Shown piece after piece: positions 38,785-39,534 of a stretch of DNA of 64,000 nt. The position numbers were made by a program, and so were the translations under genes. The stretch is from NCBI RefSeq assembly GCF_058153355.1, contig NZ_CM177019.1; one strand, given 5' to 3'. The notes under the pieces are model-generated. The model was not told the DNA's origin. It saw only the letters and a list, made by a program, of their open reading frames with translations, and made no database searches. Every line of letters begins with the position of its first letter. The stretch's first letter is position 1.

Positions 38785-38850
38785 GCTAACCGGGAATCAG
38801 AAAGACGAAGGCCCCGACCGATATTTCTATCAACCGAGGCCAACGAATGA
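38785..38850 (-). ncRNA. sokB: predicted sokB antisense RNA of the hokB/sokB type I toxin-antitoxin locus (approximate position)
   Basis: Inference from hok/sok architecture: the antitoxin RNA is antisense to the mok translation-initiation region; boundaries not determinable by eye. Confidence 0.3.
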
Positions 38851-39014
38851 ACCTAGCAATTCAGATGTTAGCCTCTTACCCGCCATCCGGCAAGGAGAAA
38901 GGCTATGAAGCACAACCCTCTGGTGGTGTGTCTGCTCATTATCTGTATTACGATTCTGACATTCACACTCCTGACCCGACAAACGCTCTACGAACTGCGG
39001 TTCCGGGACGGTGA
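38847..39014 (+). CDS. mokB: mokB, modulator reading frame overlapping hokB
   Basis: ATG at 38847 opens MNLAIQMLASYPPSGKEKGYEAQPSGG... (55 codons) overlapping hokB in another frame. Confidence 0.6.
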   Translation: MNLAIQMLASYPPSGKEKGYEAQPSGGVSAHYLYYDSDIHTPDPTNALRTAVPGR

Positions 39015-39054
39015 TAAGGAGGTGGCGGCGCTCATGGCCTGCACGTCCAGGTAA
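38905..39054 (+). CDS. hokB: type I toxin HokB
   Basis: Manual translation: MKHNPLVVCLLIICITILTFTLLTRQTLYELRFRDGDKEVAALMACTSR (49 aa); followed by GCGCGGGGATTTTCCCCGCGC hairpin. Confidence 0.85.
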   Translation: MKHNPLVVCLLIICITILTFTLLTRQTLYELRFRDGDKEVAALMACTSR

Positions 39055-39125
39055 GGGCAAGCGCGGGGATTTTCCCCGCGCATCTGACTAGCGGATTCAG
39101 TTTCTCATGGCACCCCTTTTACACT

Positions 39126-39299
39126 TCAGTTAGTGCATGTTTTTTTCGATGCACTAATAGAACCATCATTACAGACAAATTTGCCGCCTGCCGTACAGTG
39201 TGAGATCCCCCCTTTCGAACCAGAACAGGGTTTGCGCCCGGCATCGGCATAAAAGGAAACAAGCGCTCCCATAACCAAGATAAGTGCCAATTTTTTCAT
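39126..39299 (-). CDS. ydcA: small secreted cysteine-rich protein YdcA
   Basis: Manual translation of minus strand: MKKLALILVMGALVSFYADAGRKPCSGSKGGISHCTAGGKFVCNDGSISASKKTCTN (57 aa); below track cutoff. Confidence 0.8.
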   Translation of the reverse strand: MKKLALILVMGALVSFYADAGRKPCSGSKGGISHCTAGGKFVCNDGSISASKKTCTN

Positions 39300-39469
39300 A
39301 TAACCTCCATGATTTATCGAATCTTATGTTCGATTTGAACGTTATACGCTGGTTTATTTTGATACCGTTGATGAGATCAAAGATCGGGTGAATTGATTAA
39401 AGATAAGCCAGATGGACATATGGACAAGGATTATGGTTTTATTTGTCATACAAATAAATATAATAGGCG

Positions 39470-39534
39470 CTTCCGATGTAGGCCCGTATTCTTCGCCTGT
39501 ACCACGGGTCGGTTTTAGTACAGGCGTTTTCTTT
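39470..39534 (+). ncRNA. rydC: Hfq-dependent small RNA RydC
   Basis: Sequence CTTCCGATGTAGGCCCGTATTCTTCGCCTGTACCACGGGTCGGTTTTAGTACAGGCGTTTTCTT matches remembered RydC; ends in CCTGTAC...GTACAGG hairpin plus U tract; lies in the cybB-ydcA intergenic region as in K-12. Confidence 0.7.

Follow-up and report, generated by a model that had tools for sequence, protein, structure and literature searches.

The closest described relatives of the small genes and RNAs analyzed here, which lie between trg and cybB in a stretch of 64,000 nucleotides (nt) of contig NZ_CM177019.1 (RefSeq assembly GCF_058153355.1; hereafter the window), are the hokB/mokB/sokB locus of Escherichia coli K-12 (b4428/b1420/b4429), together with its annotated neighbors, and the hok/sok system of plasmid R1. 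The R1 hok mRNA is known to switch from a form in which its translational activator element (tac) pairs with the fold-back inhibition element (fbi) to one in which tac pairs with the ucb element (PMC9841398). In K-12, recent papers treat hokB as the sole active chromosomal hok gene, the toxicity of HokB upon expression has been published, and the hokB mRNA is edited by TadA (PMC12214031). The K-12 annotation gives the order rydC, ydcA, yncP, hokB, mokB, sokB between cybB and trg; YncP is among the experimentally verified small open reading frames (ORFs) of Weaver et al. 2019, YdcA is predicted in the literature to be periplasmic, and ydcA has been reported to be acid-induced under the control of YdcI and, when deleted, to sensitize cells to 3-hydroxypropionate.

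The cluster in the window is very probably the orthologue of this K-12 intergenic cluster, carried by an E. coli-like chromosome that has diverged somewhat, and with its small genes working as they do in K-12. The locus as such is already described, ordinary and of the textbook kind, and what follows concerns mainly how closely its parts correspond to the known ones.

The trg–cybB cluster and its K-12 counterpart

Alignment to the K-12 reference NC_000913.3 places the trg–cybB intergenic cluster at 38759-39534 of the window in an orientation reversed relative to K-12 (window position = 1530976 - K-12 coordinate), and all K-12 features of the cluster map one-to-one, without insertions or deletions. 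A 901-base query spanning 38700-39600 was matched in 5415 of 5426 complete E. coli genomes, which establishes homology and excludes chance, the nearest genome being that of the bovine strain EC42405 with 99.6% identity. When the whole window was scanned against Rfam at the gathering-score cut-off, only two matches were obtained, to RF01794 (named 'sok') and to RydC, and a permissive rescan of 38500-39700 at E ≤ 1 gave nothing besides these. The genes and RNAs are the following:

38801..38857, minus strand: sokB, the antitoxin RNA, identical to K-12 b4429 in 57 of 57 positions
38847..39014, plus strand: mokB, a leader frame of 55 codons overlapping hokB in a different frame
38905..39054, plus strand: hokB, encoding a 49-amino-acid (aa) membrane toxin of the Hok/Gef family
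39032..39100, minus strand: yncP (K-12 b4774), an ORF of 22 codons antisense to the 3′ end of hokB
39126..39299, minus strand: ydcA, encoding a 57-aa precursor in which a signal peptide, cleaved after ADA, precedes the mature periplasmic peptide of 37 aa
39470..39534, plus strand: rydC, a small RNA of 65 nt with a 5′ seed, a pseudoknot and a U-rich 3′ tail

A first, sequence-only reading of the window had proposed a sokB/mokB/hokB, ydcA and rydC cluster within 38785-39534 that is invisible to an ORF track with a 60-aa minimum, and the comparison with K-12 bears this out. The real genes of the cluster are all below 60 aa, and hokB, mokB and ydcA are missing from that track because each of them is shorter than the limit; in a list of ORFs of at least 20 aa covering 38500-39800 the mokB frame overlapping hokB is present as that reading had it. 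The proposed range does contain the named features, but its start cuts off the promoter and 26 nt at the 5′ end of the hokB mRNA, and with them tac, and the list was incomplete, as yncP, an annotated small gene inside the range, had been left out. The 60-aa filter thereby hides five real features within 800 bases, namely a toxin, its leader frame, a secreted peptide and two regulatory RNAs, while the sixth, yncP, escaped even careful manual reading and a spurious antisense ORF of 76 aa was displayed instead.

The HokB protein, which the sequence-only reading had recovered by hand, is identical to that of K-12 in all 49 residues, so that the protein for which toxicity has been published is the one encoded here. 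It scores 83 bits against Pfam PF01848 (HOK_GEF; cut-off 22), covering profile positions 2-42 of 42, and 100.8 bits against NCBIfam NF007279 (cut-off 73), and by profile cut-off and complete domain its sequence assigns it to the Hok/Gef family. The three nucleotide changes in hokB relative to K-12 (38946, 39024 and 39027) are all synonymous. The overlapping mokB frame, in contrast, has two nucleotide changes and both of them alter the product (I7M and H34Y), and the antisense frames likewise take amino acid changes; with no non-synonymous against three synonymous changes in hokB itself, selection acts on the hokB frame. For MokB, no Pfam family was found above threshold in a local scan, the only similarity being a sub-threshold match to DUF5431, and it is the translation of mokB that matters, not its product.

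The hokB mRNA and its predicted switch

The regulatory elements around hokB were located from the Rfam alignment, from minimum free energy (MFE) folds and by reading of the sequence, and are given below with the Shine–Dalgarno sequence abbreviated as SD:

38747..38752, plus strand: putative -10 hexamer TAGGAT of the hokB/mokB promoter, read from the sequence and placed from the start of the Rfam model
38759..38910, plus strand: leader of the hokB mRNA, reaching from its 5′ end as far as the hokB AUG (Rfam RF01794)
38759..38770, plus strand: tac, at the 5′ end of the mRNA, from MFE folds
38809..38816, plus strand: ucb or anti-SD box, predicted from MFE pair lists to mask the mokB SD in the full-length mRNA
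38836-38839, plus strand: mokB SD GAGG, predicted to be sequestered by ucb
38865..38893, minus strand: putative sokB promoter, read by eye, with -35 TTGCCG (38893..38888), a 17-nt spacer and -10 TAACAT (38870..38865)
38989..38992, plus strand: UACG motif for adenosine-to-inosine editing by TadA, with A38990 in hokB codon 29 (Tyr to Cys)
39061..39081, plus strand: GC-rich hairpin GCGCGGGGA-UUU-UCCCCGCGC, 9 base pairs with a UUU loop, just 3′ of the hokB stop codon
39103..39115, plus strand: fbi, complementary to the 5′ end of the mRNA

The leader matches RF01794 on the hok sense strand with 114 bits (gathering score 59) over the full model, 1-157; the alignment begins at GGGUGCCUGAG (38759), with TAGGAT lying 7-12 nt upstream of the mRNA 5′ end thus proposed, and finishes at the hokB SD and AUG. 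Since the consensus of this family ends in a hok SD and AUG on the hok strand, the 'sok' family models the hok leader in the sense orientation. Automatic annotation by RF01794 would get both the strand and the length of 'sok' wrong.

The putative full-length hokB mRNA (38759..39117) and 3′-shortened versions of it were folded, a check suggested by the sequence-only reading, and both forms gave the canonical arrangements. In the full-length MFE structure, tac and fbi (38759-38770 with 39103-39115) form 12 of 12 pairs with one bulge, and the mokB SD region at 38836-38841 pairs with 38810-38816, giving five of six SD–ucb pairs. In the shortened structure the 5′ end moves onto 38809-38815 with seven of eight tac–ucb pairs, and the mokB SD is freed. 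The tac–fbi, SD–ucb and tac–ucb pairings are predicted alike in seven diverged E. coli alleles, and the modeled folds reproduce the canonical hok switch.

On the chromosome, hokB/mokB/sokB very probably is a type I toxin-antitoxin module like hok/sok. By analogy with K-12 and plasmid R1, its stable hokB mRNA would start near 38759 and be made in a closed form, with tac bound to fbi and ucb lying over the mokB ribosome-binding site; slow trimming from the 3′ end would take off fbi, upon which tac would pair with ucb and expose the mokB start, and translation of mokB would be coupled to that of hokB. SokB, a short and presumably unstable RNA from the opposite strand, would pair with the mokB start region, stop translation and trigger cleavage of the mRNA. 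When made, HokB would enter the inner membrane and dissipate the membrane potential. Codon 29 of hokB carries the TadA motif, and the local MFE fold places UACG in a loop of 10 nt.

The antitoxin side of the locus, named as part of it by the sequence-only reading, corresponds to the K-12 gene in every position of the RNA. The 5′ tail of sokB can base-pair with the mokB start region and covers the mokB AUG, and a terminator scan predicts a hairpin of 14 pairs (38841..38810) followed by the T-rich tail UUCGUCUUU. The proposed sokB promoter, TTGCCG-17-TAACAT, has 8 of the 12 consensus bases, which is under the threshold of the promoter scan, and its position is presumably homologous to that of the R1 sok promoter. 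The -10 hexamer reads TAAGAT in K-12, and each of the two versions is found in the genomes compared; the base responsible, 38867, is also the one that gives rise to I7M in mokB.

The resemblance to the K-12 locus extends to its position between trg and ydcA, the identity of HokB and sokB, the pairings among tac, ucb, SD and fbi, and the UACG motif. The differences comprise seven single bases in the transcribed region (38867, 38946, 39024, 39027, 39084, 39093 and 39100), of which 39084, 39093 and 39100 fall in the hokB 3′ untranslated region, and a 3-base change directly upstream of the mRNA 5′ end. None of them touches tac, ucb, either SD, the start codons of hokB and mokB, or fbi. As the regulatory elements are spared and hokB has no non-synonymous change, the locus should, judged by its sequence, be as functional as the one in K-12; the sequence-only reading had called it intact, which holds in the sense of being as intact as K-12 and only in that sense. 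Neither the hokB frame nor the RydC seed carries a disrupting mutation in the K-12 alignment, the finding that reading had named as the one to contradict it.

With plasmid R1 the locus shares the gene layout and the logic of the RNA switch, the leader fitting the Rfam model completely. The ucb–SD stem contains an A×C mismatch, which we take to correspond to the one in R1 hok, for which A106/C74 is described in PMC9841398. Unlike hok/sok of R1, the locus in the window is chromosomal, lacks a terminator hairpin after fbi, and has a 3′ end that converges on ydcA and yncP. Since it is not plasmid-borne, it would have no post-segregational role.

The GC-rich hairpin downstream of hokB, noticed already in the sequence-only reading, is not a terminator, and no T-run follows it; it is a conserved internal stem of hok mRNAs, and a homologue is found in hokA as well.

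Several points weigh against a locus that works as in K-12. A consensus promoter scan of 38500-39700 found no sigma-70-like site with at least 9 of 12 matches, and the proposed hokB and sokB promoters have at most 8 of 12 each, so the promoter positions are based on homology and on reading of the sequence. No canonical intrinsic terminator was found 3′ of fbi, which leaves the 3′ end of the hokB mRNA undefined. The tac–fbi duplex, at -21.8 kcal/mol, ranks first when 12,794 plus-strand positions of the window are compared, yet a rival site near 52521 (approximately 52521-52566, plus strand) pairs with the mRNA 5′ end at -21.2 kcal/mol. This second site is taken as chance, but the near-equal energies mean that the tac–fbi complementarity alone is not statistically unique; it is the position that counts, and energy alone was not used as evidence. 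While identities, model scores, predicted pairings and substitution patterns come directly from the window, expression, processing, toxicity and target regulation are carried over from the work on K-12 and plasmid R1. Finally, a 1999 study (Pedersen and Gerdes) is reported to have regarded K-12 hokB as probably weakened or inactivated by point mutation. Later work treats the K-12 gene as functional.

The weak promoter matches and the empty consensus scan would also fit a hokB/sokB locus that is a decaying relic, recognizable but no longer killing or regulating, a state that the 1999 study reportedly proposed for the K-12 allele, as would the disruption of other chromosomal hok loci in K-12, such as that of hokA by IS150, and the deletion of the neighboring hicAB module in the window. 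Decay of this kind is nevertheless very unlikely, as the HokB protein has remained unchanged across three synonymous substitutions, the regulatory pairings are all kept in the seven diverged alleles, and sokB is invariant with respect to K-12. In addition, ppGpp-induced HokB activity and TadA editing reaching 80-90% at most have been published for K-12, whose transcript codes for an identical protein. A module equivalent to that of K-12 is therefore the preferred reading of the locus.

Antisense frames and the YdcA peptide

The ORF shown on the minus strand by the 60-aa track had been considered spurious in the sequence-only reading, and the comparison agrees:

38830..39060, minus strand: antisense ORF of 76 codons with a TTG start, judged to be no gene

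The frame is open in all seven alleles compared, as one would expect of a real gene antisense to hokB, but it is extremely improbable that it represents one. It has no Pfam or NCBIfam match, begins with TTG, is unannotated in all six genomes inspected, and would require transcription mostly from within the sokB/hokB regulatory region. Furthermore, all four of its substitutions relative to K-12 change an amino acid; read in the hokB frame, these substitutions are synonymous.

The small gene yncP presents a different case, as its K-12 counterpart agrees with it in position and length and has been verified experimentally. Three of its 69 nucleotides differ from K-12 and all three are non-synonymous, replacing the ATG start by CTG and causing L3P and K6R. 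The other six aligned alleles all have an ATG start, and the 61-nt haplotype around the start codon occurs in only 3 of 5356 complete E. coli genomes. The 22-codon frame is thus not ATG-started here but is otherwise open, and a coding sequence is annotated at the same coordinates by the NCBI pipeline PGAP in the near-identical strain EC42405; together with the verification of K-12 YncP in the list of Weaver et al. 2019, these would speak for a peptide still being made from the CTG. Continued production is unlikely, however. Translation in E. coli starts very poorly from CTG, the frame offers no ATG, GTG or TTG in its place (the ORF list has no entry ending at 39032), and the exclusively non-synonymous differences between alleles argue against selection on the peptide. 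An upstream ATG at 39108-39106 was considered as a rescue and rejected, as it is out of frame and opens an ORF of three codons only.

The location of yncP has a parallel at hokA. The ysaE ORF at the K-12 hokA locus and yncP at hokB (window 39032-39115) occupy homologous positions, both beginning just within fbi and running antisense through the GC-rich hairpin into the hok stop codon, and the pairs hokB/yncP and hokA/ysaE are listed as convergent overlapping transcripts (PMC12288877). The two hok paralogues thus have in common a small antisense ORF or, at the least, convergent transcription. One could imagine that the ydcA–yncP transcript, convergent to the hokB 3′ end and antisense to fbi and the GC-rich hairpin, is a second antisense regulator of hokB, one that depends on conditions: by pairing with the fbi end, or through colliding transcription there, it might imitate or prevent the trimming from the 3′ end that would activate the toxin mRNA, and the yncP ORF would then be a by-product of the antisense RNA. 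The by-product interpretation fits the loss of the start codon here, the purely non-synonymous allele change and the ysaE equivalent at hokA, but the regulatory model as a whole is a long shot.

For ydcA, the sequence-only reading had described a 57-aa Cys-rich secreted protein on the opposite strand, and the description is well supported. The gene has an SD, GGAGG, 5 nt upstream, and its product scores 144.8 bits against NCBIfam NF007462 (cut-off 118) over the full length; the precomputed Pfam family of YdcA is PF27300, and in the local Pfam scan no family was found for YdcA or YncP. Four nucleotides differ from K-12 and cause two amino acid changes, F9V and T12A, both in the signal peptide, so the mature peptide is identical to that of K-12. 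In 29 homologues C25, C35, C43 and C55 vary little or not at all, and the mature sequence, with its four conserved Cys and a conserved His, is nearly invariant from Escherichia to Acinetobacter and Actinobacillus (Enterobacterales, Pasteurellaceae). YdcA would therewith be a Sec-exported, disulfide-bonded periplasmic peptide of 37 aa.

A profile built from the 29 homologues matches a single solved chain, that of Legionella Dis2/Lpg0823 (E = 4.8e-4), and does so in both of its repeats. Dis2 is a protein of the outer-membrane cap in Dot/Icm, a type IV secretion system, and has been described as consisting of two similar disulfide-pinned lobes without structural neighbors. The AlphaFold model of YdcA (predicted local distance difference test score, pLDDT, 77) has the same Dis2 chain as its top Foldseek match, but the match is insignificant, as a Foldseek search of the PDB with the model gave nothing at E ≤ 0.001, so the link is drawn mainly from the sequence profile. 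That YdcA is a single-lobe relative of Dis2 is about as speculative as the antisense regulation of hokB discussed above, although the two are separate matters, and the resemblance may serve as a lead but is not a result. Some small value may lie in the resemblance to Dis2 and in the rarity with which yncP has, as here, lost its ATG; otherwise, the cluster matters little beyond annotation.

An inverted repeat of 10 base pairs with a T7 loop is predicted in the MFE fold at 39129..39158, within the last codons of ydcA and between fbi and the body of that gene. It was considered as a terminator of hokB or ydcA and discarded, as there is no T-run on either strand and it is located inside the ydcA coding sequence.

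RydC and the surrounding window

The 65-nt RydC noted in the sequence-only reading with its own terminator matches Rfam RF00505 at 39470..39533 with 90.5 bits (gathering score 48) over model positions 1-64 of 64, and its seed, both helices and the U-rich tail are present. Its promoter contains one further feature:

39459..39464, plus strand: perfect -10 box TATAAT of rydC, found in the sequence

The conservation of this box has been described (PMC11340327). Nucleotides 1-12, which make up the seed, are identical to K-12, and the sole difference from that strain is A13G, through which an A-U pair in helix S1 becomes G·U; the G13 allele is carried by 1241 of 5410 complete E. coli genomes (23%). 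The pairing potential of the pseudoknot, another check put forward by the sequence-only reading, is retained, as S1 (12-18/35-41) has seven of seven standard pairs, one of them G·U, and S2 (26-33/49-56) has eight of eight. The residues U23U24, U46U47 and G37/G39 are also kept, and both these UU steps and the two G residues have been singled out in PMC4337610. The 3′ neighbor of rydC is cybB, as in most species. RydC would accordingly be expected to act as an Hfq-bound pseudoknot small RNA whose 5′ seed activates the cfa mRNA and whose transcription is repressed by YieP; the window does not include cfa.

On the scale of the window, the best matches among the 5426 complete E. coli genomes reach 96-98% identity over segments of 14-25 kb, and the segments flanking the cluster are 94-97% identical to K-12. 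With best identities of only 96-98%, the window therefore derives from an E. coli-like lineage that is thinly represented. The region 39500-64000, which includes variable autotransporter genes, is covered to at least 80% in only 17 genomes.

The nearby hicAB module is broken, as the sequence-only reading had held: relative to K-12, a 444-bp deletion with its junction near 23479 removes all of hicA and approximately the first 60 codons of hicB (approximately 23244-23528). The residual hicB fragment has an in-frame stop upstream of its conserved part. HokB, a persistence toxin, and RydC, a regulator of membrane stress, are kept unchanged in this lineage without hicAB.

Two other differences from K-12 were observed outside the cluster. 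The insertion sequence IS609 (insQ), which in K-12 lies between ydcL and ydcO, is absent, leaving a clean junction at 27815/27816, and gapC, a frameshifted pseudogene in K-12, is present as an intact ORF of 333 aa at 40263-41264 on the plus strand.

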